This document shows positions 3,929 to 54,332 of a DNA stretch of 64,000 nucleotides, in pieces. The DNA is taken from NCBI GenBank assembly GCA_033764015.1, contig JANRJK010000019.1, positions 4,872 to 68,871 on the forward strand, written 5' to 3'. How positions within the stretch are numbered: the stretch's first letter is position 1; every line of letters begins with the position of its first letter. The notes under the pieces are model-generated. The model had not been told where the DNA came from and made no database searches. It worked only from the letters and a program-made list of their open reading frames with translations. The stretch comes from Candidatus Sumerlaeia bacterium (GTDB taxonomy: Bacteria; Sumerlaeota; Sumerlaeia; SLMS01; JANRJK01). A program made the translations under genes and the position numbers.

Positions 3929-4011
3929 TCGAGGGGGAGGCCCGCCCCGATTCCGGTTGCGAGAACGCCGTAAGCCGGGCTTCCCTCGCCGCCACGGAGG
4001 AAGCCGACGAC

Positions 4012-5280
4012 GTGTGCTTGACGAGATCGAGCAAGACGGGGAAAGCGCCGCCAACGGCCGAGGTCATCGGCGAAGAGTCGAGCGGGATGCAGACGCTTCG
4101 CGTGCCGCCCGGTGGCGGGGGCATCATCGAGTTGGATCGCATCTTTGGGCTAAAGGCGGTCGAAGCTTACGAGTACACCCCCTACGGCATTCCTACCGTT
4201 CACTACAAGGACGGGGCGATGGTTCGCACCGTCGTGTGGGACGACGACAAGGATACTGTCACCACCACTTCAAGCGTTACCAGTAATACACGTCGAGGCG
4301 AGTTTGCGGACGCGGCGTACCTGACGATGAGCGACTCTCCGTTCGGAGCGAGCTCATTTGACAAGGGGCGCGTGCGTAACTCCGCCGCGATGTCGCGGAT
4401 TGGTATCAAGCACCTCTACATGGCCCGGCCTTGGATTCCAGTTGGCGAAGTGTACCACATCCGCGCACGTTGGTACTCCCCGTTCGAGGGGCGGTTCATT
4501 ACTCTTGATCCGATTGGGTACGCAGGGGGTGCGAGTCAGTACATGTATTGCATGGGGGATTCTATTGACTTTATCGATCCGTTTGGCGAGGCCCCACTTG
4601 ACTGGGGCATTTGGTTGCAGGAGTGGTCTGAACCGCTGGAGGTGAAGGCTGCAAGATATGGTACGGGACCGATCAGCAATGTCATCGGGTTCGGTGGTTA
4701 CTACATGGCCAGTAGTGTAACTGCAGTTGGAGATATGCTGCAAGTCGGCACAGGACTGCACGCTGCTTGTAGCGGCTACGACATGAGTGGGCGGAAGCTT
4801 TCGACATTGGAGCGTTCTGAGCATCTATCCGGTGACATTTTCCGGGGTGTCGCCATCGGAGCTAGTGTGTATGGTGTCGGTAGAGGTTTCGACAGGATGG
4901 CATTTGGAAGTCGTAGGAATAGATTCTTGTACGATGGATGGGAAAAGAGTCGCGGCGAGATTTTGATCTTGGCTGAGAAGAACGGTGGACGAATGCTGGC
5001 GAATACTCCTGCCGGTCGCTTTGCTACAACTCTAGATAATGCAATGGGAAAGTCGGGGATGAGTAGCGAGCTAAGAGGGGGAGTATCGAATCGCATGTGG
5101 GATCATATGTCCCGCCACTATGCTCGGACTGCAAGGGGGAGGACATTCATCGCCCCGCTGGGAAAGAACCCTAACTCCGTGCTAAGGCGGGTTGAGATGC
5201 CTGAACTGATGAACAATAGTTGTGCTGATGTGCGTTACGTAGCGCGCGAGTACTTCGAGGCGCTTGGATGGCATCAATGA
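4012..5280 (+). CDS. orphan Rhs/YD-repeat C-terminal fragment: Rhs core end plus variable toxin domain
   Basis: YD-like repeats (YEYTPYGIPTVHYKDG) then the Rhs core signature RARWYSPFEGRFITLDPIGYAGGASQYMYCMGDSIDFIDPFGE (DPxG autoproteolysis motif at 4576-4590). A roughly 230-aa C-terminal domain of unknown family follows. GC falls from about 70% to about 50% downstream of the core. Confidence 0.75.
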   Translation: MCLTRSSKTGKAPPTAEVIGEESSGMQTLRVPPGGGGIIELDRIFGLKAVEAYEYTPYGIPTVHYKDGAMVRTVVWDDDKDTVTTTSSVTSNTRRGEFADAAYLTMSDSPFGASSFDKGRVRNSAAMSRIGIKHLYMARPWIPVGEVYHIRARWYSPFEGRFITLDPIGYAGGASQYMYCMGDSIDFIDPFGEAPLDWGIWLQEWSEPLEVKAARYGTGPISNVIGFGGYYMASSVTAVGDMLQVGTGLHAACSGYDMSGRKLSTLERSEHLSGDIFRGVAIGASVYGVGRGFDRMAFGSRRNRFLYDGWEKSRGEILILAEKNGGRMLANTPAGRFATTLDNAMGKSGMSSELRGGVSNRMWDHMSRHYARTARGRTFIAPLGKNPNSVLRRVEMPELMNNSCADVRYVAREYFEALGWHQ

Positions 5281-5302
5281 ATCGTCCCTTCGGAGGTGCA
5301 TC

Positions 5303-5701
5303 GTGAATCTGATGTCCGTTCTGAAGAGGGCTGTTTCCTTTCTGTGTGGTCGAAGTCAGACAGCATCGAGCGGTTCAAGAGGGCGCTTGAGAAGGATGGG
5401 TCCAGAGGGCGGTTACTTCGAGTTCTGGCACGAGGGAAGGATGCATTCTGTCGTCGCAGGGCTTCGCTACGACACAGACGTGGAGCAGGTTTTCTTGTAT
5501 CGGGATATCATCCTCACGGGGGCAGAGTGCCTAGACGTCGCGGAGTCGTCCGACGATTTGGTTGCGAGTCTCGAACAGAGCGCGAAGGAGTACTTTAAAC
5601 AAAGCGACGTGCGGCTTGTCGAGCACTCTGAAAGAAACCGCAATGTTCAACTTCGGGCAATGGAAGAGTTGAAGGCACTTCGTGCTCGAAAGGGTAGATG
5701 A
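5303..5701 (+). CDS. putative cognate immunity protein for the Rhs C-terminal toxin
   Basis: Low-GC ORF immediately downstream of, and overlapping, the toxin 3' end, in the frame of track ORF 5264..5701. GGAGG lies 6 nt upstream of GTG 5303 (alternative ATG at 5312). Its composition is balanced, whereas the alternative frame 5296..5598 is Arg-rich. No family recognised; the start is uncertain. Confidence 0.45.
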   Translation: MNLMSVLKRAVSFLCGRSQTASSGSRGRLRRMGPEGGYFEFWHEGRMHSVVAGLRYDTDVEQVFLYRDIILTGAECLDVAESSDDLVASLEQSAKEYFKQSDVRLVEHSERNRNVQLRAMEELKALRARKGR

Positions 5702-6057
5702 GTGATTTAGGGATGAACTGTCTGGTCACGATGCGAGACCAGCTACCTAATCCCTCACCCCATTGATGCTGACCTGCACTTGATTGCTTGACGTTGTTTG
5801 GGCGCGTTTGCGCCAGCGGCCCGTATGTCCACCCGCTAGCCCTACCGCTACCACATGCTTGTCGATCTTGAGCGCTTCGCGCGGGTCCGCCGCGAGGCGA
5901 TCCTCGAGGTCGACCGGGGGCGCGACGAAGGCCGATGTCGCGCGCCAAGTCGGCGTCGGCCGGCTGACGGAAGTCGACTACCTCCAGTTCGCGATCCCCA
6001 AGAAGCCTGTGGCCAAGGATCACCGTCCGTCGACTGCTCCAGTGGGGCATTTTCTCA

Positions 6058-6342
6058 ATACTCCACCCTCCAAGTCGGCGACTCCTCCACCCTGCTCCGC
6101 CTCCGGTCGTAGAGTCTGGTCGTGCTGACGTTTGCGTGCCCGAGCCATTCCTGCACCTTCGCGATGTCGGCTTGGTGCTCCAGGGCGTTGGTCGCGGCGG
6201 TTGCGCGGAGCGAGTGGACGCAGAGGCCGCGGATGTCGATGCCGGCACGGCGGGTGGGGTGCTGGACGATGTCGCGGAGGACGGATTCGGGGTGAGAAGA
6301 GAAGCTCTCACGCGAGGCCGCGAGGACGCGAAGTGTTGCGCT
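6058..6342 (-). pseudogene. tyrosine recombinase/phage integrase C-terminal remnant (no start codon, N-terminus missing)
   Basis: Reverse-complement frame reads ...HPESVLRDIVQHPTRRAGIDIRGLCVHSLRATAATNALEHQADIAKVQEWLGHANVSTTRLYDRRRSRVEESPTWRVEY*. HxLR and LGHxxxxTTxxY(catalytic Tyr) are integrase box II motifs. The frame opens directly after an in-frame stop, so this is a 95-aa fragment only. Confidence 0.6.
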
Positions 6343-6388
6343 TCAGGAACGCGGCAGGCCGCATGGACGCCCGCGACACTCTGCCGCG

Positions 6389-7300
6389 TTACCTGAAGAA
6401 GGCGTCCGCGCGCGAGTCGTCCGCCAGCTCGCGGACGCGGTCGCGGTCGAGGCCCGGCGAGAGGTCGCAGGCGAGGGCGATTTCGCGCTCCATGTCGAGC
6501 GCGGCGTTGCTCGCCAGCGAGTCGGTCCCGAGGTAGCAGCGCACGCCGCCCTCGAGCAGCCGCGCCAGCGGGAACGGGCCGCGCGCGAAGTAGGCGTGCG
6601 TGCCCGGGCAGACGACGGCGCTCGCGCCCGATTCGCGCATCAGGCGGATGTCCTCGTCGTCGATGTCGTTGCAGTGGGCGAGGAGCGTGCGCGGCCCGAG
6701 GGCGCCGCATTCCGCAAGCCACGGGACCGGGCGCAGGCCGGGGTGTTCCCAACCCGCGCGCAGGTGGAACTCGAGGAGGAAGTCCGCCAGCGGCCCGCGC
6801 CGGCGCAGCAGCAGTTCCGTCTCCTCCACGGTTTCCGCGGCGTGGATGCAGAGCCACTGGCCGCGGGCGCGCGCTTCGCGCACCGCCGCGCGCAGCAGCG
6901 GCGCCGTGATCGTGTACGGCGCGTGGGGCGAGAGGCCGTGGCGCGCGAGCGCGTCCTTGGCGCGGGAGAGCGCCTGCCGGTCCAGCGCGCCGCGCAGCGT
7001 CTCCTCGCCGGTGCGCGGGTTGGTGTCGATCACCTCGCGGAACAGCACGCGCCGCAGGGTGGTTGACTCAGTCAACGGTTCGTCCGCGGTGTCCATGGCG
7101 AGGATGTCGGCCACGGCGGTGGTGCCGTTCGCGGCGAGCTCCGCGAGGCCCGCGCGGGCGCTCGCGGCGCTGGCGAGCGCGGACCCGGCGCGCTTCAGCG
7201 GCAGCAGCCGCTCGAGCCACTCGGCGAAGGGGAGCCCCGGCGGGATCGCGCCCTTGAGGAACCCGAGTTCGAGGTGGCAGTGCGAGTTGAACGTGCCCAC
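6389..7300 (-). CDS. amidohydrolase-family metal-dependent hydrolase (lacks the usual N-terminal composite domain)
   Basis: The HCHLELG (HxH) metal-binding motif sits at residues 7-9 and later HxxE/D motifs are typical of the amidohydrolase superfamily. GTG start at 7300 lies 2 codons after the U32 stop and in the same frame. Confidence 0.65.
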   Translation of the reverse strand: MGTFNSHCHLELGFLKGAIPPGLPFAEWLERLLPLKRAGSALASAASARAGLAELAANGTTAVADILAMDTADEPLTESTTLRRVLFREVIDTNPRTGEETLRGALDRQALSRAKDALARHGLSPHAPYTITAPLLRAAVREARARGQWLCIHAAETVEETELLLRRRGPLADFLLEFHLRAGWEHPGLRPVPWLAECGALGPRTLLAHCNDIDDEDIRLMRESGASAVVCPGTHAYFARGPFPLARLLEGGVRCYLGTDSLASNAALDMEREIALACDLSPGLDRDRVRELADDSRADAFFR

Positions 7301-9969: not shown

Positions 9970-11208
9970 ATGGAGGCGCCCGTGGAATCCGCCGCACTGC
10001 CCAAGCTGCTGTCCGCCGTGCTCGCGACGCATCGCGAGCTGGCCCGGCTGCTGGTCGCCGGCGCCCCGCCGCGGCGCTCCGCCCCCGGTGGGCCGATGCC
10101 GCTCCTGCTCTTCTCGCAGGTGCCGTGGGACAGCGTCTGGCAGCGTCCGCAGGAGCTCGCGCTCGGCCTATCGCGGCGCCGTCCGGTCGTGTTCTTCGGC
10201 CCGGTGCAATGGCACGAGGCCGCGCTGCGCGTCGGCGCCGCCCGCGAACCGGTCCGCCGCCTCGAGGACGGCCGCCTGCTCGTCCTCTCCCCGGTCGAGT
10301 TCTCCGGCACCTACAAGGTCGGTGCGGTGGCGGCGCTGAACAACCTCCTTCGCGCACGGCTGCTCAGCCGCGTCCTGCCGGGGCGCGACTTCATCTACCT
10401 CACCAACTCGCTGTTCGACTGGGAGCTGGCGCGCGCGCTGCGCCCGCGCCACCTCGCGCTGGACCTGATCGACGACTTCGCCGGGTTCGCCTGGGCGCCG
10501 CGCGGCGCCCGCCGCAGCGAGCGTCTCCTCGCGCGCCGCGCCGACCTCGTCGTCGCCGGCACCGGCACGCTGGCGCGGCGCTGGCGCCAGCGCGGCTTCG
10601 ACGTGGACTATCTGCCCAGCGGCGTCCACGCGGAGCGTTTCGCCGGTTCCTTCACCGAACCGGGGGACCTGCGCGCCGCGCCGCGCCCGCGGCTGCTCTA
10701 CGTGGGCACGCTCAACGACCGGCTCGACGCGTCGCTCCTGCTCCGCGCGGCGGAGGCGAACCGCTCCGGCAGCGTCGTCGCCGTCGGGCCCCGCCACGGC
10801 TCCTTCGCCCTTCCGGGGCCGGCGCCAAAGAACTTGCTCTTCCTCGGCTTGAAGCCACACTCCGACCTGCCCGCCTACTACGCCCATTGCGATGCGGGGA
10901 TCATGCCCTTCGCCGACACCCCCGCCGCCCGCGCCATCAATCCTGTGAAGGCCCTCGAGTACCTCGCCGCCGGGCTTCCGGTCCTTTCGACACCGATCCC
11001 CGACGTGGTAGCCGAGTACCCCCCGCACGCGACCATCGCGGCGGCGCCGGATTGGCCCGCGGCGCTCGCCGAACTGCTCGCCCGTCGCGAGCCGGAGACG
11101 GTCCGCGAAGCGCGCCGCGCCTTCGCCCGCGGGCGCTCCTGGGGCGCCATGGTCGACGCCTTCGAGGAGCGCATCGGCCGCCTCGAAGCCGCGGAGGCCC
11201 GCGCGTGA
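9970..11208 (+). CDS. glycosyltransferase family 1 (GT4-like)
   Basis: C-terminal GT1 motifs LLYVGTLNDRLD...LLFLGLKPHSDLPAYYAHCDAGIMPF...INPVKALEYLAAGLPVLST. Start chosen at MEAPVESAALPKLL; MPLLLFSQVPW at 10096 is an alternative. Confidence 0.8.
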   Translation: MEAPVESAALPKLLSAVLATHRELARLLVAGAPPRRSAPGGPMPLLLFSQVPWDSVWQRPQELALGLSRRRPVVFFGPVQWHEAALRVGAAREPVRRLEDGRLLVLSPVEFSGTYKVGAVAALNNLLRARLLSRVLPGRDFIYLTNSLFDWELARALRPRHLALDLIDDFAGFAWAPRGARRSERLLARRADLVVAGTGTLARRWRQRGFDVDYLPSGVHAERFAGSFTEPGDLRAAPRPRLLYVGTLNDRLDASLLLRAAEANRSGSVVAVGPRHGSFALPGPAPKNLLFLGLKPHSDLPAYYAHCDAGIMPFADTPAARAINPVKALEYLAAGLPVLSTPIPDVVAEYPPHATIAAAPDWPAALAELLARREPETVREARRAFARGRSWGAMVDAFEERIGRLEAAEARA

Positions 11209-12902
11209 GCAGCCGACTCAAGTTCCTCTTCGCGCTCTACCGCTGGGGGGAGGATCTGCTCGGCGGCGCCGAGCTGCTCCACCGCCGCCTCGCCTTCGAA
11301 CTCCTCGAACTCGGCCACGAGGTCGAGGTTTGGACCACCACCGGCCACAAGTTCGAGCACTTCGCCCACTGGGGCGAGCGCTGGACCGAATTCCACGCCG
11401 CGGGCGACACGCTCGACAACGGCATCAAGGTGCGCCGCTTCCCGATGCGCCCGCAGTCGAAGCTCCTCATGGGGATCTTCGCCAAGGCGCTCCAGTTCGA
11501 ATGGGAGCGCCACGCCGTCGAGGTCGATCCGCGCCGCCTTTTCCTGACGCCGGAGCGCATCCTCCTCGGCCCCGACTGGCACGAGGCGGAATCCGCCGGC
11601 GAGGGTCTCGCGCGCCGGTGGAGCTGGGCGCGCTCGAGCGTGTTCCTCGCCCCGGGCGGGCGGGAATCGCTCCTCACCATCAACGGTTACACCCCGCGCC
11701 CGCAGCAGCTCCAGCTCCGCTGCGCCGGCCCCGACACCCGAGAGGTGGTGAAGCGCCAGGCGGTCGACCAGCACTTCAGCATCCAAGTCACCGTGCCGGC
11801 GACACGGGAGGCCGTGGTGCTGCAGCTCCGCGCGGAAGGCGCCTTCCGCCCTCCCAAGGACTTCCGCGAACTCGGCGTCCTCGTCTCCGACATCTTTCTC
11901 GACACCGGCGAGGCGTCCTACGGCGCGAACATGTGGATCGACGCGCGACCTCTCGCCCGCGACTCCGCCCTGGTCGCGCGCGCGGCGAAGCGCCCGCCCG
12001 CCTCGGGAATGCTCTTCGACTACCTGCGCGGGCCGAACAGTCCCGCGCTCCAGCGCGCCCTCGCGCGCGAGTCGCGCAACCGCGACGTCATCTTCACCGC
12101 GAACCTCCCGTGGCGCCTCTTCGACCCGCCGAAGGTCACCCGCGGCGGCGCCATCCGAACCATCATGCCGCTGATGCACCTCGGCGACTCGTACTACTAC
12201 TGGAGCCACTACTTCGACGCGATGCGCGGGGCGGACTTGAACCTCGCGATCAACCAGGCGAGCGGCGAGACGCTCTTCAAGGAGATCGGCGCCAAGTCCG
12301 CCTTCATCGGCCCGCCCATCTGGCCCGACGAACGGCTCACCCGCCTCGAGACGAAGCGCGCCAACTCGAAGAACATGCCGGTCGTCGTCTTCACCCTCTC
12401 GCGCAAGACGGGCGAGAAGCGATACATGGAGATCGCCGCCTCCGTCGGAAGGCTACGCGCCGCCGGTCTGCCGCTGGTGATGATCGGCGCCGGCCCCGAC
12501 GCGGACGGCGCCCCCCTCCCGGAGGGTTGCCGCTGGCTCGGGCGCCTCTCGGAGGACGAGCTGGTCGAGGCATGGGCCAACGCACATATCTTCGTCCTCA
12601 TGAGCGAGTCCGAGTCCTTCGGGATGGTCATCGTCGAGGCGTGGCACGCCGGGCTCCCGGTCGTGGTCAACCGACGCTGCCGCGCCGCCGCCTCGCTGGT
12701 GGAGCACGATGTGGACGGCTACGTGGTGAGCCCCGGCGGCGAGCTGGACTCGGCGCTCGAGTTGCTGGCGGAGGACGCCGGCCTGCGCGCGCGGCTGGCC
12801 GCCGCGGGCCGCCGCCGCGCCCGCCAGGAATTCGTCCGCGGCGCCGCCGGCAAGCGCTTCGTCCAAGCGGTCGAGCCCCTCGTCCGCGAACGCCGCAAGT
12901 GA
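11204..12902 (+). CDS. glycosyltransferase family 1, large N-terminal domain
   Basis: GTG start overlaps the upstream stop (GTGA). C-terminal GT1 motifs VVVFTLSRKTGEKRYMEI...FVLMSESESFGMVIVEAWHAGLPVVV... Confidence 0.75.
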
Positions 12903-46976: not shown

Positions 46977-47972
46977 GTGGCGGCGCCGGCGGAACCGCAC
47001 TGGCGCGAGGACCCGGTGACCCGCGAGCGGGTCATCATCGCGCCCCTCCGCGCCGCCCGTCCCTTCACCGCCCCCGCGCTCGCCGCCGGGCCGCCGTACG
47101 ACGCCGCCCGCGATCCCTTCGCCCCGGGCAACGAATCCGAGACCCCGCCGGAGATCGCCGCCGTCCGCGCCGGCGGCGCCCCCGCCGACGGGGTCGGCTG
47201 GACCACGCGCCTCGTCCCGAACCGCTATCCGGCGCTGACGCCCAACTGCGTCGCCCCCGCGCCCGGCCCCGGAGGTCCGGGCCACGGGTTCCACGAGGTC
47301 CTCATCGAGTCCCCCGGCATGGAACCCTTCGACGAACTCCCGCCGGCGCGCGCCGCCGACGCCTTGGTGCTCCTCGCGCGCCGCGTCGCCGAGCTTTACC
47401 GCGAGCCCGGCGTCGCGGCCGTCGAGGTGTTCAAGAACCACGGACGGCTCGCCGGCGCCTCCCTCGAGCACCCGCACTTCCAGCTCCTCGCGCTGCCCTT
47501 CCTGCCGGCCCGCACCGCGGCGGTCGTTGACTCTGTCAAGGAATACGCCGCGCGCACGGGGCGCGACCTCGGCGCCGACCACGTGGCGGGGGAGGAGGCC
47601 GCCGTGGAGCGCCTGCTCCACCGCTCGCCGCGGTTCCTCTGCGCCTGCCCCTTCGCCTCGCGCGTCCCCTTCGAGCAGGCCCTATGGCGCCTCGGAGGCG
47701 CCGCGCCCTTCCACGGCGAGCCGGAGGACGCGCTCTCGGAGGCGGCGGAGCAGTTCCGCGCCATGGTGCGCCGGATGCGCCGCGCCTGCGGCGACCCGCC
47801 TTACAACGCGCTGCTGCGTTCCCTGCCGCCGGGCTGCGGCGCCGCGCTCCCCTGGAGCCTGCACCTGCTGCCGCGCCGCGGCGTCTTCGGCGGCTTCGAA
47901 TGGGCCACCGGCGCCTACATCAACTCGACCCCGCCGGAGGACGCCGCCGCCCGGCTCCGGGCCGCGGTGTGA
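46977..47972 (+). CDS. GalT-branch HIT family nucleotidyltransferase/phosphorylase (galactose-1-P uridylyltransferase / Ap4A-phosphorylase-like)
   Basis: GFHEVLIESP..., HPHFQL (HxHxQ) HIT-like motif, Cys/His zinc site upstream. GTG start. Confidence 0.7.
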   Translation: MAAPAEPHWREDPVTRERVIIAPLRAARPFTAPALAAGPPYDAARDPFAPGNESETPPEIAAVRAGGAPADGVGWTTRLVPNRYPALTPNCVAPAPGPGGPGHGFHEVLIESPGMEPFDELPPARAADALVLLARRVAELYREPGVAAVEVFKNHGRLAGASLEHPHFQLLALPFLPARTAAVVDSVKEYAARTGRDLGADHVAGEEAAVERLLHRSPRFLCACPFASRVPFEQALWRLGGAAPFHGEPEDALSEAAEQFRAMVRRMRRACGDPPYNALLRSLPPGCGAALPWSLHLLPRRGVFGGFEWATGAYINSTPPEDAAARLRAAV

Positions 47973-49277
47973 TCAGCGCCCCGCGGACAGCTCCGCCAGC
48001 ACGGTCCGGTTGCTGATCCAGGGGAACTGCATCGCCTCCGCGTTCTTCGCGAAGTCGGGGTACGTCATCTCGACGAAGGCGGACAGCTCCCGCGCCATGT
48101 CCAGCGCGTCCTTCGGCGGGCAGGGGACGGTGCCGTGCGCGAGCACCAGCCGCCGCCGCGCCTCCAGCACCTGCTGGAACGACGTGTTCTCGCGGAACGC
48201 GGTTCCCAGCGGATGGCCGAGGGTCTCGAGCAGTTCGTAGGACCGGCGCAGGCCGAGCTTGATCGTCGCGTCGTCGATCCTGCGCAGCGACTCGAACATG
48301 GCGCGGCGCCGCGGCGGCACGCGCCGGATGTCCAGCCGGTCCGTCCGCAGGCCGTACTCCTTGAAGATCACCGCCTGCGCGTAGAGCTCCGCCGCGCGGT
48401 AGAGGCGGGCAAGCGCGTCGTCGAAGCGGTGCTCGCGCAGGCGGCGCACCGCGTTGTTGAAGAGGTCCACGATGAGTTCCGGCGGGAAGTCCACGCACTC
48501 GCGCCCGGTGCGCGCGATGGGGCGCAGCAGCTCGATCGCGCGCGGGCGCAGCCGCAGCCCCTTCAGCCTCCCCTTCGCGGGGATCCGCGCCTCGTGGCGC
48601 TCGTACTCCGACAGGAAGGTGTCCACCTGGAAGTTGTCCCACGCGCCGTAGGCGACGGCGAACGCCTCGACCAGTTCGCGGCGCTCGCGGGCCGGGGGCG
48701 GCAGCAGCGAGGCGTCCAGCGAATGCGCCGTCTCCGCCGCCTTGTCGAAGCGCTGCTCGAAGAAGAAGTCGGTCGCCTCGTCCAGCCGGCGCCGCGCGAC
48801 GAGCGCCGCCGGCGTGCTGGCGTGCACCGCTTCGGACGCGCCGGCGCTCCCCTTCGGCGCGGGCAGCAGGTAGCGCAGCCCCTCGATCCCCGCGCCGACC
48901 GCCGCGAGCACCGCCCCCGCGGACATCGCCTTGGTCCCCGCGGTGTAGTTCAGCACGATCCGCCGCCGGTCGAAGCCGCCGTCCAGCAGCGCCTCGATCT
49001 CCTCGCTGGCCCGCGAGTACGCCTCGTCGATCGAGTGGTGCGACTCTAGGAGCACCAGCCGGAACTTGCCCTTCGGCAGCCGGAGGCCGGCGCGCAGCCG
49101 TTCCGCGTTGTCGACCGAATCGCCGGTGGCCATCACCGACAGGTGCGCCGGGCGCAGCGGCTTCAAGTCCGCGATCAGCGCCTCGACCACGTCGCTGGGG
49201 ACGCCGGAGGGCGTGGTGCCGATGGTGACGAGGTGGGCGGTGTCGGCGTTTGTCGCGGCGGGGGGCTTGCGGGGCAT
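47973..49277 (-). CDS. CARF-HEPN protein (Csm6/Csx1-like, TIGR02710-like), standalone
   Basis: N-terminal Rossmann-like CARF core: LVTIGTTPSG (strand 1 plus Thr-rich loop), LSVMATGDS, and IVLNYTAGTKAMSAGAV, which matches the CARF [DN]x[ST]xxx[RK] / GTK motif. The C-terminal alpha-helical domain carries RRLREH (Rx4H, HEPN). Confidence 0.6.
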   Translation of the reverse strand: MPRKPPAATNADTAHLVTIGTTPSGVPSDVVEALIADLKPLRPAHLSVMATGDSVDNAERLRAGLRLPKGKFRLVLLESHHSIDEAYSRASEEIEALLDGGFDRRRIVLNYTAGTKAMSAGAVLAAVGAGIEGLRYLLPAPKGSAGASEAVHASTPAALVARRRLDEATDFFFEQRFDKAAETAHSLDASLLPPPARERRELVEAFAVAYGAWDNFQVDTFLSEYERHEARIPAKGRLKGLRLRPRAIELLRPIARTGRECVDFPPELIVDLFNNAVRRLREHRFDDALARLYRAAELYAQAVIFKEYGLRTDRLDIRRVPPRRRAMFESLRRIDDATIKLGLRRSYELLETLGHPLGTAFRENTSFQQVLEARRRLVLAHGTVPCPPKDALDMARELSAFVEMTYPDFAKNAEAMQFPWISNRTVLAELSAGR

Positions 49278-49449: not shown

Positions 49450-49734
49450 ATGAAGCTCAACCCCGGACTCCGCGAACAGACCGAAGAGAAGGTGCTCCTC
49501 GTCGTGCGCTCAAAGAGCAACGGCGGCACCCGCATAGACTGGTTCCCCTCCGTCGAGGAGGCGCAGGCCCACGACATGGAAGTCCTCGAGGTGCGCGAGC
49601 GCATCCAGCTCGCGAAGAAGCCCGAGGCCACCGGCTTCATGAAGCTGCTCGAAATGACGCTGGGCCGCGCCGCGTCCCAGGACCGCCTGATCCACGAGAA
49701 GACGCTGCGCCAGAAGGAATACTTCCGCCGCTAG
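49450..49734 (+). CDS. hypothetical small protein
   Basis: 94-aa ORF MKLNPGLREQTEEKVLLVVRSKSNGGTRIDWFPS... upstream of pilT. No family recognised. Confidence 0.35.
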   Translation: MKLNPGLREQTEEKVLLVVRSKSNGGTRIDWFPSVEEAQAHDMEVLEVRERIQLAKKPEATGFMKLLEMTLGRAASQDRLIHEKTLRQKEYFRR

Positions 49735-52675: not shown

Positions 52676-53698
52676 CTACCGACCGGGTGCGAAGTCCAAG
52701 GTCGCCTCGTTGAAGACGAGCCGCCTTCCGGTCTTCGAGTTCGGATCCTCGAAAATCGGGATCGGCGCCGCCCCCGAATCTCCCGACCGGTAGAACAAGG
52801 AACGCTCCGCCAATCCCGCCGGCGAGACAATGTCCCGAGCAGGATCAACAGGGCGAACCTCCTCCAGCGTATACGTACTCCGGCTCTTCGCGACCGCCTC
52901 GTACTCCCCCAACAGGGCGCGCAGCTCCGCGGCGGATGTTGCGCTCCGGAGGTCGGTGCGGATCCCGTAAGAAGTCTCCGTCACCTGATGACCGGGCTCG
53001 TTCGGACGGCCTCCGGATGTTTGCATCGAAATCGACGGGAGAAAGGTCACCTCGGAGCCGCTGCCCCAAACCACGGCGGTCCCTGCCGCACTCCTCGTGA
53101 CGCTTCCATTGGAAGCGTCGATGAAGTCGAAGAAACCGCTGTAGGTGGTGAAGCCCTCTTGCGTTGCGACTGGTTCCTTCCCCGACACCCAGAGCACGCC
53201 CGGCTCGGGGGCCGATATCAGGTACGGACGCGAGGACCTCGAAACCTCTTCCACCATCAACGCCCGGCTGGACACGGAATCCGGGCCAACGATCATGTCT
53301 CCGACTACACTGAAGGGGGGAACGAACGTGGCAACGCTTGAGGCACTCGGGAACGCCGTGTAGGCTCCCCCCATCCATTCCACGGTCAGGACGCCATCCC
53401 AGAACATCAAGAACTGTGGCGAGGCCGCAAGCGTCGGGTCGGTCGTCTCCATATGCTGGAACACGACTGATCGATCCGTAGCAATCGCCTTGAAGTCAAA
53501 AGACTTGGACTCCGACGGCGCCTTCCCGCCGCCTGCCTGTTCGGAGCGAAGCGAGTAACGGAACACGGTACCGGACTCCAACGGCGCGATGGCCGAGTAC
53601 AGCTCTAGCGCTTCGCTCGGGGTTGATTCGACGACCTTCATGTTGATCGGCGCCTCGACCGATGCGCCGAGGCTGAGAACTAGGAATGCGAGGACCAT
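52676..53698 (-). CDS. secreted hypothetical protein (lower-GC gene)
   Basis: Signal peptide MVLAFLVLSLGASVEA. 340 aa, GC about 58%. No family recognised. Confidence 0.5.
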   Translation of the reverse strand: MVLAFLVLSLGASVEAPINMKVVESTPSEALELYSAIAPLESGTVFRYSLRSEQAGGGKAPSESKSFDFKAIATDRSVVFQHMETTDPTLAASPQFLMFWDGVLTVEWMGGAYTAFPSASSVATFVPPFSVVGDMIVGPDSVSSRALMVEEVSRSSRPYLISAPEPGVLWVSGKEPVATQEGFTTYSGFFDFIDASNGSVTRSAAGTAVVWGSGSEVTFLPSISMQTSGGRPNEPGHQVTETSYGIRTDLRSATSAAELRALLGEYEAVAKSRSTYTLEEVRPVDPARDIVSPAGLAERSLFYRSGDSGAAPIPIFEDPNSKTGRRLVFNEATLDFAPGR

Positions 53699-53716
53699 CT
53701 GGTGTCTCCTTTCGGG

Positions 53717-54160
53717 TCAACCTGCGGGGAAGCTCAGGCTCGGATGATTGCAGCCGATCGTGCTGTAGAAGACCGTCGCAAGACCGAGTCGACAGGAGTA
53801 ACTGCCGGTTCGGCGGTTATAGATCGTGGTCCACGGTCTCCTCGTAACGCAGGGGATCGTTCCGGCGTTGCACTCCTTGTTAATGGCGGCCGCGCAGGAA
53901 GCGAAGTTCGGAGTTGGGTCGTACTGGTAAGCGTCGATGGTATCCGCGCAGGATTGCCAACCGTTCGGCAAGATTCCACAGTACCCCGCGCCTGGTTCAA
54001 GGCAGATATCGTAATCGTCGTCGGGTGGGACCACACACGGATTGGCCGTCAACACGCATTCGGCTCCCGGCCAAACCTCCGCGTGGACTTTCGCCAAAGT
54101 TAAGGGGATCGCCGACAGCACAGCAAGCGCTGAGAGTAGCCCGGTGATGGATCTCCTCAT
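53717..54160 (-). CDS. small secreted Cys-rich hypothetical protein
   Basis: Start at MRRSITGLLSALAVLSAIPLTLAKVHA (signal peptide). The mature part has about 12 Cys. The TTG-initiated extension to 54238 is rejected. Confidence 0.45.
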   Translation of the reverse strand: MRRSITGLLSALAVLSAIPLTLAKVHAEVWPGAECVLTANPCVVPPDDDYDICLEPGAGYCGILPNGWQSCADTIDAYQYDPTPNFASCAAAINKECNAGTIPCVTRRPWTTIYNRRTGSYSCRLGLATVFYSTIGCNHPSLSFPAG

Positions 54161-54332
54161 CTCTATCTCCCTAAAGGGTGGAAATCTCACTCGATCAAGT
54201 CGAGATAGGGGGTCGCTACCCCCCCCCTCATCCGTCAACAGAAAACTTCAAGCGGTCAAGGCGCGATACCTTGCGCCGATTCCGGCGCGGCGCGCCTCCG
54301 CCCCGCCGGCGATCCCGGCTAAATCCCACCGC

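Follow-up and report, generated by a model that had tools for sequence, protein, structure and literature searches.

Csm6-family enzymes, which cut RNA when a signal activates them, normally work with type III CRISPR systems. What, then, does such an enzyme respond to when no CRISPR system is encoded beside it? The question is raised by a gene in 64 kb of a 105,939-bp contig from a metagenome-assembled genome (MAG) of Candidatus Sumerlaeia bacterium; we refer to the whole 64-kb stretch as the window. A first-pass annotation of the window, made from the sequence, had described a standalone Csm6/Csx1-like CARF-HEPN gene. The gene lies at the position that annotation gave (47973-49277), on the minus strand, and all the motif strings quoted there can be located by translating the 434-aa open reading frame (ORF), which begins with ATG. 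The NCBI database holds an identical entry, MDX2176132.1, annotated as 'TIGR02710 family CRISPR-associated CARF protein' from Candidatus Sumerlaeia bacterium. The gene product is a full-length Csm6-type (TIGR02710) CARF-HEPN protein. We propose that it is probably a self-limiting RNase gated by cyclic oligoadenylate (cOA), the signal being supplied in trans by a distally encoded Cas10.

Profile hidden Markov model searches, suggested in the first-pass annotation as a check on the Csm6/Csx1 assignment, match above the curated cutoffs. The NCBIfam equivalog TIGR02710 ('CRISPR-associated CARF protein') scores 129.7 bits against a cutoff of 83.9 (E=1.3e-37), aligning residues 34-387 with model positions 6-366 of 384, and Pfam PF09670 ('Csm6 HEPN domain') covers residues 267-401 with 95.7 bits (cutoff 27, E=3e-27). 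The PADLOC model CARF1--CARF_HEPN reaches 197 bits over residues 14-421 (E=8.8e-59), and several PADLOC Csx1 models match over almost the full length with E-values of 1e-42 to 1e-47. Two Pfam models stay below threshold: the CARF model PF22208 (14.6 bits, cutoff 27.5) and Csm6_6H (13.4 bits, cutoff 27.6, residues 165-225). Searching PDB sequences with the single protein sequence (phmmer) gives no match. A profile of 52 homologues from the protein database aligns full length with Thermus thermophilus Csm6 (TtCsm6; 5fsh/8jbb, E=8e-17), and its CARF part matches Cam1 and the Crn1 ring nucleases (Sso2081, E~4e-7).

The same 52-homologue alignment yields an AlphaFold2 model of the monomer with a mean predicted local distance difference test score of 91.4 and a predicted template-modelling score of 0.81. 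The N-terminal domain alternates strands (residues 14-19, 45-51, 72-77, 107-113 and 133-138) with helices (30-41, 52-64, 83-99 and 116-128); it is followed by a helical linker (helices at 157-173, 177-186, 194-214, 218-231, 237-241 and 245-256) and a helical C-terminal domain. The Rossmann-like N-terminal domain on which the first-pass annotation had staked its proposal is present. In a Foldseek search of the PDB the eight best matches are all TtCsm6 structures (8jh1/8jbb/5fsh; probability 1.0, template-modelling scores of 0.62-0.66, 430-450 aligned columns). Among them is 8jh1, in which TtCsm6 is bound to cyclic tetra-adenylate (cA4); Csm6 proteins of the cyclic hexa-adenylate (cA6) type rank lower. 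Foldseek also matches the CARF domains of TtCsm6, Cam1 and Can2.

TtCsm6 (TTHB152; PDB 5FSH, 8JBB, 8JH1) is a cA4-activated, self-limiting CARF-HEPN RNase, and our protein shares its CARF-linker-HEPN architecture along the full length of both the profile and the structural alignment, although sequence identity in the structural alignment is only 17-19%. The two proteins also have in common motif I (G-T-S/T), the equivalents of T81 and E83, motif II (T-x-G-T-K), the equivalent of Y161, the E332 latch and the R-x6-H spacing of the catalytic motif. By inference the protein belongs to the same functional class as Csx1 in the sense of Hoikkala et al. 2024, where the name denotes cA4-activated dimeric CARF-HEPN effectors with the cA4-dependent 'Csm6' proteins merged in; the difference in naming is one of convention only. 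In that scheme, however, Csx1 and Csm6 are defined as effectors of type III loci, and our gene lies outside such loci. With Crn1 proteins such as Sso2081 it shares the CARF fold and motifs I and II; Crn1 has about 180 residues and consists of CARF only, whereas our protein has 434 residues and a conserved HEPN domain and so is not a Crn1.

To place residue conservation in context, we computed a neighbour-joining tree, confined to the 52 homologues and without support values. The sequences P0002-P0027 (42-55% identity) fall into one clade together with P0028 and P0029 (33-34%); we call this the orphan clade. Its sister group in the tree is P0030-P0038. Counts out of 27 below refer to the close members of the orphan clade and counts out of 52 to all homologues. 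Feature coordinates are collected in Table 1.

The first-pass annotation had singled out three CARF motifs, and its reading of them was correct: they align with functional residues of TtCsm6 and are conserved across the homologues or, at the least, within the orphan clade. Motif I, G20-T21-T22, reads G-T-[TS] in nearly all orphan-clade sequences, and in TtCsm6 the corresponding T59A/S60A substitutions abolish both cA4 cleavage and RNase activation (PMC10897365). T51 and D53 of the strand-2 motif are invariant in the 27-member clade; their TtCsm6 counterparts, T81 and E83, form hydrogen bonds to the cA4 adenine (PMC10897365). T112, G114, T115 and K116 of motif II are present in 52/52 homologues, and K137A, a substitution at the equivalent of K116, abolishes cA4 binding by TtCsm6 (PMC10897365). 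Y136 occurs in at least 90% of the 52 homologues and without exception in the orphan clade; it corresponds to the ring-nuclease residue Y161, the Y161A form of which still binds cA4 and no longer cleaves it (PMC10897365).

The HEPN domain is equally well preserved at its active site. H381 and G382 occur in all 52 homologues, and R374 in 51 of them. These residues lie in the motif R374-R375-x5-H381, which aligns with R415-N416-x5-H422 of TtCsm6, where R415, N416 and H422 are each essential to RNase activity (PMC10897365). E297, also found in 51/52 sequences, aligns with E332 of TtCsm6, the latch that holds the catalytic R415 in the apo, inactive state (PMC10897365). The first-pass annotation had instead taken the string RRLREH as the HEPN RNase signature. 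This does not hold: alignment column 283 contains R in 22 sequences, G in 20, K in 3, H in 1 and other residues in the remainder, the one histidine being that of our own protein, and on this alignment evidence RRLREH is a chance Rx4H match. As the catalytic motif is R374-R375-x5-H381, the R and H mutants earlier proposed for RRLREH would hit the wrong histidine, and the correction matters to anyone designing mutants.

The string looked meaningful because R278 and R279, both invariant, are part of a subfamily signature. N275, R278, R279, D287, R291 and R294 (48396-48455, minus strand) fall within the first helices of the HEPN domain and are the same in 52/52 sequences, orphan and CRISPR-linked alike. 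TtCsm6 has no counterpart to this signature (N275-x2-R278-R279...D287...R291...R294), which is specific to the subfamily.

By analogy with TtCsm6, the protein would form a homodimer, and a cyclic oligoadenylate, most likely cA4, would bind the two-CARF pocket (G20-T21-T22, T51/D53 and T112-G114-K116). The helical linker would relay closure of the CARF domains to the HEPN domains, where the E297 latch would let go of R374 and the site made up of R374/R375/H381 would become competent. Single-stranded RNA would then be cut non-specifically, with growth arrest or abortive infection as the outcome, until the CARF site (T21/T22, K116 and Y136) cleaves the activator and the enzyme is switched off.

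Where could such a signal come from? The first-pass annotation had stated that the 64 kb hold no repeats, no cas10 and no other cas genes, and both array searches and family scans bear this out. Tandem Repeats Finder, a direct-repeat search, Rfam and a custom detector of spaced repeats find no CRISPR array in the window; the custom detector recovered the arrays of two control loci (L010 and L026), and Rfam reports a single tRNA. Scans with Pfam, NCBIfam and PADLOC detect no Cas, Cas10, CD-NTase, SMODS or cyclase family in about 40 window ORFs supported by third-codon-position GC, a few small ribosomal-protein ORFs aside. Ten of the window ORFs have no Pfam match; PADLOC is negative for these as well, and NCBIfam gives nothing relevant. 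The window reaches 47.9 kb to one side of the gene and 14.7 kb to the other. The gene is thus linked neither to a cas10 operon nor to an array, the linkage by which it would be called CRISPR-associated, and no CD-NTase, SMODS or other cyclase gene adjoins it, as would be expected of a cyclic-oligonucleotide-based antiphage signalling system (CBASS), in the Pfam scans of the window and among the best 25 of 41 PADLOC families matched by 123 flanking ORFs.

What surrounds the gene are housekeeping functions. Nearby lie genes for a DUF4921 HIT/GalT-like protein, a TPR protein, an ECF sigma factor, PilT, peptidyl-tRNA hydrolase, NusG and L10; farther off in the window are FeoB, TatC, L13, serine dehydratase, QueF, a U32 peptidase, a Ser/Thr kinase and a subtilase. 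Given these neighbours and the negative scans for Cas and cyclase families, the gene sits in a core-genome neighbourhood and not in a defence island. It is also compositionally native to its host, since its third-position GC of 0.96 matches that of the surrounding genes (the window as a whole has about 70% GC). We detected neither a sigma-70-like promoter nor an intrinsic terminator in its vicinity.

The absence of a signal source extends to the relatives. When the clade profile was run against GTDB species-representative genomes, 15 loci were returned, 12 of them from MAGs labelled Sumerlaeota, Sumerlaeia or BRC1. The proteins of the window and of L005/L015, L012 and L017 are those placed in the tree; the other loci were assigned to the clade by tblastn identity. 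Contexts were covered for 16 clade loci: the window, five loci analysed with Pfam over ±10 kb, and ten analysed with the array detector and with PADLOC on 113 flanking ORFs (the PADLOC result covers the best 25 of 41 matched families, the other 16 all having E > 6.5e-28). The flank matches seen with PADLOC belong to kinases and ATPases of generic kinds and to a primase-like protein. The array detector made one call, at L020 19594-19818, which is a 60-nt tandem coding repeat without spacers and not an array.

All 16 clade loci lack a CRISPR array and any recognisable cas or cyclase gene. By contrast, four distant relatives lie directly downstream of cas10-csm2-csm3-csm4-csm5 (type III-A), some of them with cas6/cas1/cas2 and an array as well: P0035 (30% identity), P0044 (27%), P0049 (27%) and P0052 (26%). 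The control loci L010 and L027-L029 show this canonical cas10-csm linkage, and at the distant locus L026 a 20-repeat array adjoins the gene. The linked relatives, of Desulfobacterota and Meiothermus type, belong to the same NCBIfam (TIGR02710) and Pfam family and share with our protein the invariant CARF and HEPN residues and N275/R278/R279; they differ in having the canonical R-N/H-x5-H catalytic motif, mostly G-T-G as motif I, and the cas10-csm linkage itself.

Since neither the window nor any other examined clade locus has a cas or cyclase gene, the activating signal is not encoded nearby. The most economical source would be a Cas10 cyclase that acts in trans and belongs to a type III CRISPR system located elsewhere in the genome. 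On the strength of genome statistics, it has been proposed that effectors encoded at a distance are activated in trans (PMC11229360). We also count in favour of this explanation that the Cas10 proteins beside the closest CRISPR-linked relatives retain the GGDD cyclase motif intact; in the Cas10 proteins of L028 and L029 both the HD and the GGDD motif are intact.

Several observations weigh against it. Neither a Cas10 gene nor a CRISPR array was seen in the window or at the 15 further clade loci. The nature of the ligand is read from motif similarity to TtCsm6 and Crn1, at the low overall identity given above. TtCsm6 N164, required for cA4 cleavage and not for binding (PMC10897365), is replaced by P139 at a position that is not conserved. 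R375 occupies the position of TtCsm6 N416, where N416A kills the RNase, and catalysis may differ. Finally, for the effector to be retained vertically over a long time, a type III system would have to have persisted just as long, and this is unproven. A Cas10 profile search carries no weight either way: among its best 120 of 1,497 matches there is no Sumerlaeota-labelled protein, only Desulfobacterota-type ones. A literature search on CRISPR in Sumerlaeota/BRC1 found nothing relevant.

Much of the same evidence would suit a different history: that of a domesticated, CRISPR-independent sensor-nuclease which broke away a single time from a type III-A locus. It would now serve as a stand-alone abortive-infection or dormancy switch, triggered by a nucleotide that Cas10 does not produce (for instance a second messenger of the host, a stress signal or a product of phage). 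We regard this as possible, if on balance unlikely. In its favour, the 16 unlinked loci stand against the four relatives at 26-30% identity that follow cas10-csm, the orphan sequences form a single clade in the tree, and the scan found no relatives on viral contigs. Furthermore, seven orphan-clade loci share all or part of one neighbourhood, with pilQ-pilP-pilO-pilN-pilM divergent upstream, then the gene, then a convergent gene downstream that we call 'c1', followed by PRAI, a metallophosphatase and a thioredoxin-like gene. Such a common housekeeping neighbourhood indicates vertical descent within a subclade, as opposed to defence-island mobility. The fuller claim, that a Csm6-type RNase detached a single time and has been inherited vertically across Sumerlaeota as a CRISPR-independent sensor-nuclease marked by R-R-x5-H and reading a non-Cas10 signal, we consider doubtful. 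The inspection was of loci, and a type III system could lie at a distance in the genome; the ligand-contact residues match those of the cA4-binding TtCsm6; and there is no conserved partner that might make another signal, as the neighbours of our gene are common to none of the other clade loci and 'c1' is absent beside it. No alternative cyclase lies next to the gene in the 16 clade loci, and recruitment to a neighbouring non-CRISPR system, which the first-pass annotation had raised, finds no positive support there.

The logic has a precedent: an orphan TIR-SAVED effector has no cyclase of its own and reads c-di-AMP of the host instead (bioRxiv 10.1101/2025.06.19.660554). The likeness lies in the effector logic without a cognate cyclase and is an analogy only: the sensor is SAVED and not CARF, the effector an NADase and not an RNase, and the system is CBASS.

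Features confined to the orphan clade also speak for an independent course. The HEPN motif is R-R-x5-H in 27/27 close orphan sequences, whereas the residue after the catalytic arginine is N or H throughout P0030-P0052, including the four CRISPR-linked relatives. Motif I is G-T-[TS] in the clade, as in TtCsm6 and Crn1, against G-T-G in P0030-P0044 and P0046, and D53, invariant in the clade, is variable elsewhere. At about 42-54% identity the 27 members have 54 invariant columns, among them all the tested residues for cA4 binding, ring-nuclease activity and HEPN function, with T51, D53, Y136, E297, R374, R375, H381 and G382. Because functional residues are invariant despite this overall divergence, the pattern indicates purifying selection on both sensor and nuclease, as expected of a working protein and not of a relic.

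On the side branch the picture changes. P0028, an intermediate orphan (L009 6952-8271), keeps R374 and has A at position 375; P0029, a close relative of P0028, has Q-G at 374-375. Judged by these degenerate motifs, the RNase may have been lost there. One could go further and suppose that the orphan proteins are mainly cOA-degrading ring nucleases or sponges, selected for their CARF activity, in which the N-to-R change has attenuated the HEPN RNase. The profile match to Crn1, the Crn1-like motif I, and the alteration of the N416 equivalent in all orphan sequences agree with this, and the TtCsm6 CARF has itself been likened to Crn1 in its motifs I and II (PMC10897365). However, R374, H381, G382, E297 and many other HEPN residues are invariant in the 27-member clade, and the lack of a nearby cOA source leaves a ring nuclease with the same signal problem; we think this explanation improbable. 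That the gene no longer has a function and is merely decaying after the loss of a type III CRISPR locus is barely credible: the missing cas genes and arrays in 64 kb would fit, but the ORF is intact and full length with native codon composition, synteny is conserved, and the invariance of functional residues across the clade effectively refutes it.

Unlinked CARF genes are already known, and the 2025 CRISPR-Cas classification notes abundant homologues of CARF genes outside CRISPR-Cas systems (PMC12669027); taken by itself, our protein is an ordinary, already annotated Csm6-family member. What is noteworthy is the clade-level orphan pattern together with the R-R-x5-H variant of the catalytic motif. 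The lineage keeps an intact cOA sensor and RNase in housekeeping and partly syntenic contexts, never beside cas genes in the examined loci, and a substitution peculiar to it has changed a position of the catalytic motif that the model enzyme TtCsm6 cannot do without. If the carrier genomes have Cas10, as the trans-signalled RNase that we favour would require, the clade illustrates well how unlinked loci can depend on obligate trans-signalling. If they lack it, the clade offers a clean natural test case of the way in which ancillary effectors of CRISPR turn into independent modules for immunity or stress, and of which signals CARF domains can read outside CRISPR. Either way, the R-R-x5-H variant is a simple target for biochemistry.

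Table 1. Coordinates of the CARF-HEPN gene, of its domains and motifs, and of the 'c1' genes found beside orphan-clade relatives.
Feature	Locus	Position	Strand	Basis or TtCsm6 equivalent
CARF-HEPN gene, complete, 434 aa	window	47973..49277	-	ORF, TIGR02710, PADLOC, AlphaFold2, Foldseek
CARF (Rossmann-like) sensor domain, aa ~10-155	window	48813..49250	-	strand/helix alternation in the model
CARF motif I, G20-T21-T22, past strand 1	window	49212..49220	-	G58-T59-S60
Strand-2 motif T51-G-D53-S54, adenine contact	window	49116..49127	-	T51 = T81, D53 = E83
CARF motif II, T112-A-G114-T115-K116, past strand 4	window	48930..48944	-	T133/G135/K137
Y136	window	48870..48872	-	ring-nuclease residue Y161, by profile alignment
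Helical linker (6H/HTH), aa ~157-256	window	48510..48809	-	model helices, TtCsm6 structural alignment
HEPN ribonuclease domain, aa ~266-434	window	47976..48482	-	PF09670
RRLREH string (R278, R279 invariant; H283 not conserved)	window	48429..48446	-	column counts
E297	window	48387..48389	-	E332 latch, by alignment in the YRALELL helix
HEPN catalytic motif R374-R375-R-L-V-L-A-H381-G382 (R-x6-H)	window	48132..48158	-	R415-N416-x5-H422
'c1', two copies	L005	11401-12240, 12325-13068	-	
'c1'	L008	11423-12298	-	
'c1'	L013	6895-7686	-	
'c1'	L014	3081-4118	-	
'c1'	L016	11329-12096	-	
'c1', two copies	L021	11391-12149, 12196-12963	-	

In six syntenic Sumerlaeota loci the 'c1' gene, 250-345 aa long, directly follows the orphan Csm6 gene on its downstream side in convergent orientation; two of these loci have it as a tandem duplicate. 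As a generator of the signal it was dropped: neither Pfam nor PADLOC nor NCBIfam gives a match to it, and it is absent from our locus.

At our locus the convergent neighbour is the gene at 46977-47972 (plus strand), and the two stop codons adjoin exactly (tga at 47970-47972, tca at 47973-47975); the zero-nucleotide spacer given in the first-pass annotation is exact. That annotation called the neighbour HIT/GalT, of which the HIT-like nucleotidyl transferase part stands and bona fide GalT does not. The gene matches DUF4921 at 35.2 bits (cutoff 28.5) and weakly an Ap4A-phosphorylase N-terminal domain, and is far below the cutoffs of the GalT equivalogs (62 against 448 bits and 45 against 102 bits). 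Its adenylyl-transfer fold made it a candidate partner, which we rejected: it adjoins the CARF-HEPN gene in no other locus. On the other side, before pilT, there is a 94-aa ORF (49450-49734, plus strand) that is divergent from the Csm6 gene, with a 172-bp spacer between the two. It is called on independent Logan contigs and has no Pfam, PADLOC or NCBIfam match.

Elsewhere in the window, two ORFs of 340 and 173 aa without a family match occupy 52676-54238 (minus strand), a stretch with 63% GC between the rpsL region and the L10/NusG/tRNA-Trp cluster. A patch of still lower GC (57% over the 2 kb at 4001-6000) holds a 422-aa ORF (4012-5280, plus strand) with an RHS repeat-associated core at residues 146-192 (TIGR03696, 47.3 bits against 32.5). 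Some 230 aa of C-terminal sequence without assignment follow, and then an overlapping 145-aa ORF (5264-5701, plus strand). The segment 4012-5701 resembles the tip of an orphan Rhs toxin accompanied by a candidate immunity gene and was probably acquired horizontally.

The CRISPR-linked control loci have peculiarities of their own. The Meiothermus-type III-A locus L027 encodes two TIGR02710 paralogues, at 5243-6448 and 10001-11212. Between csm5 and cas6 or csm6, toxin-antitoxin-like pairs are found: PSK_trans_fac with PIN in L027 (3608-4243) and L010 (3675-4321), and a nucleotidyltransferase with a small HEPN protein in L029 (6976-7567).

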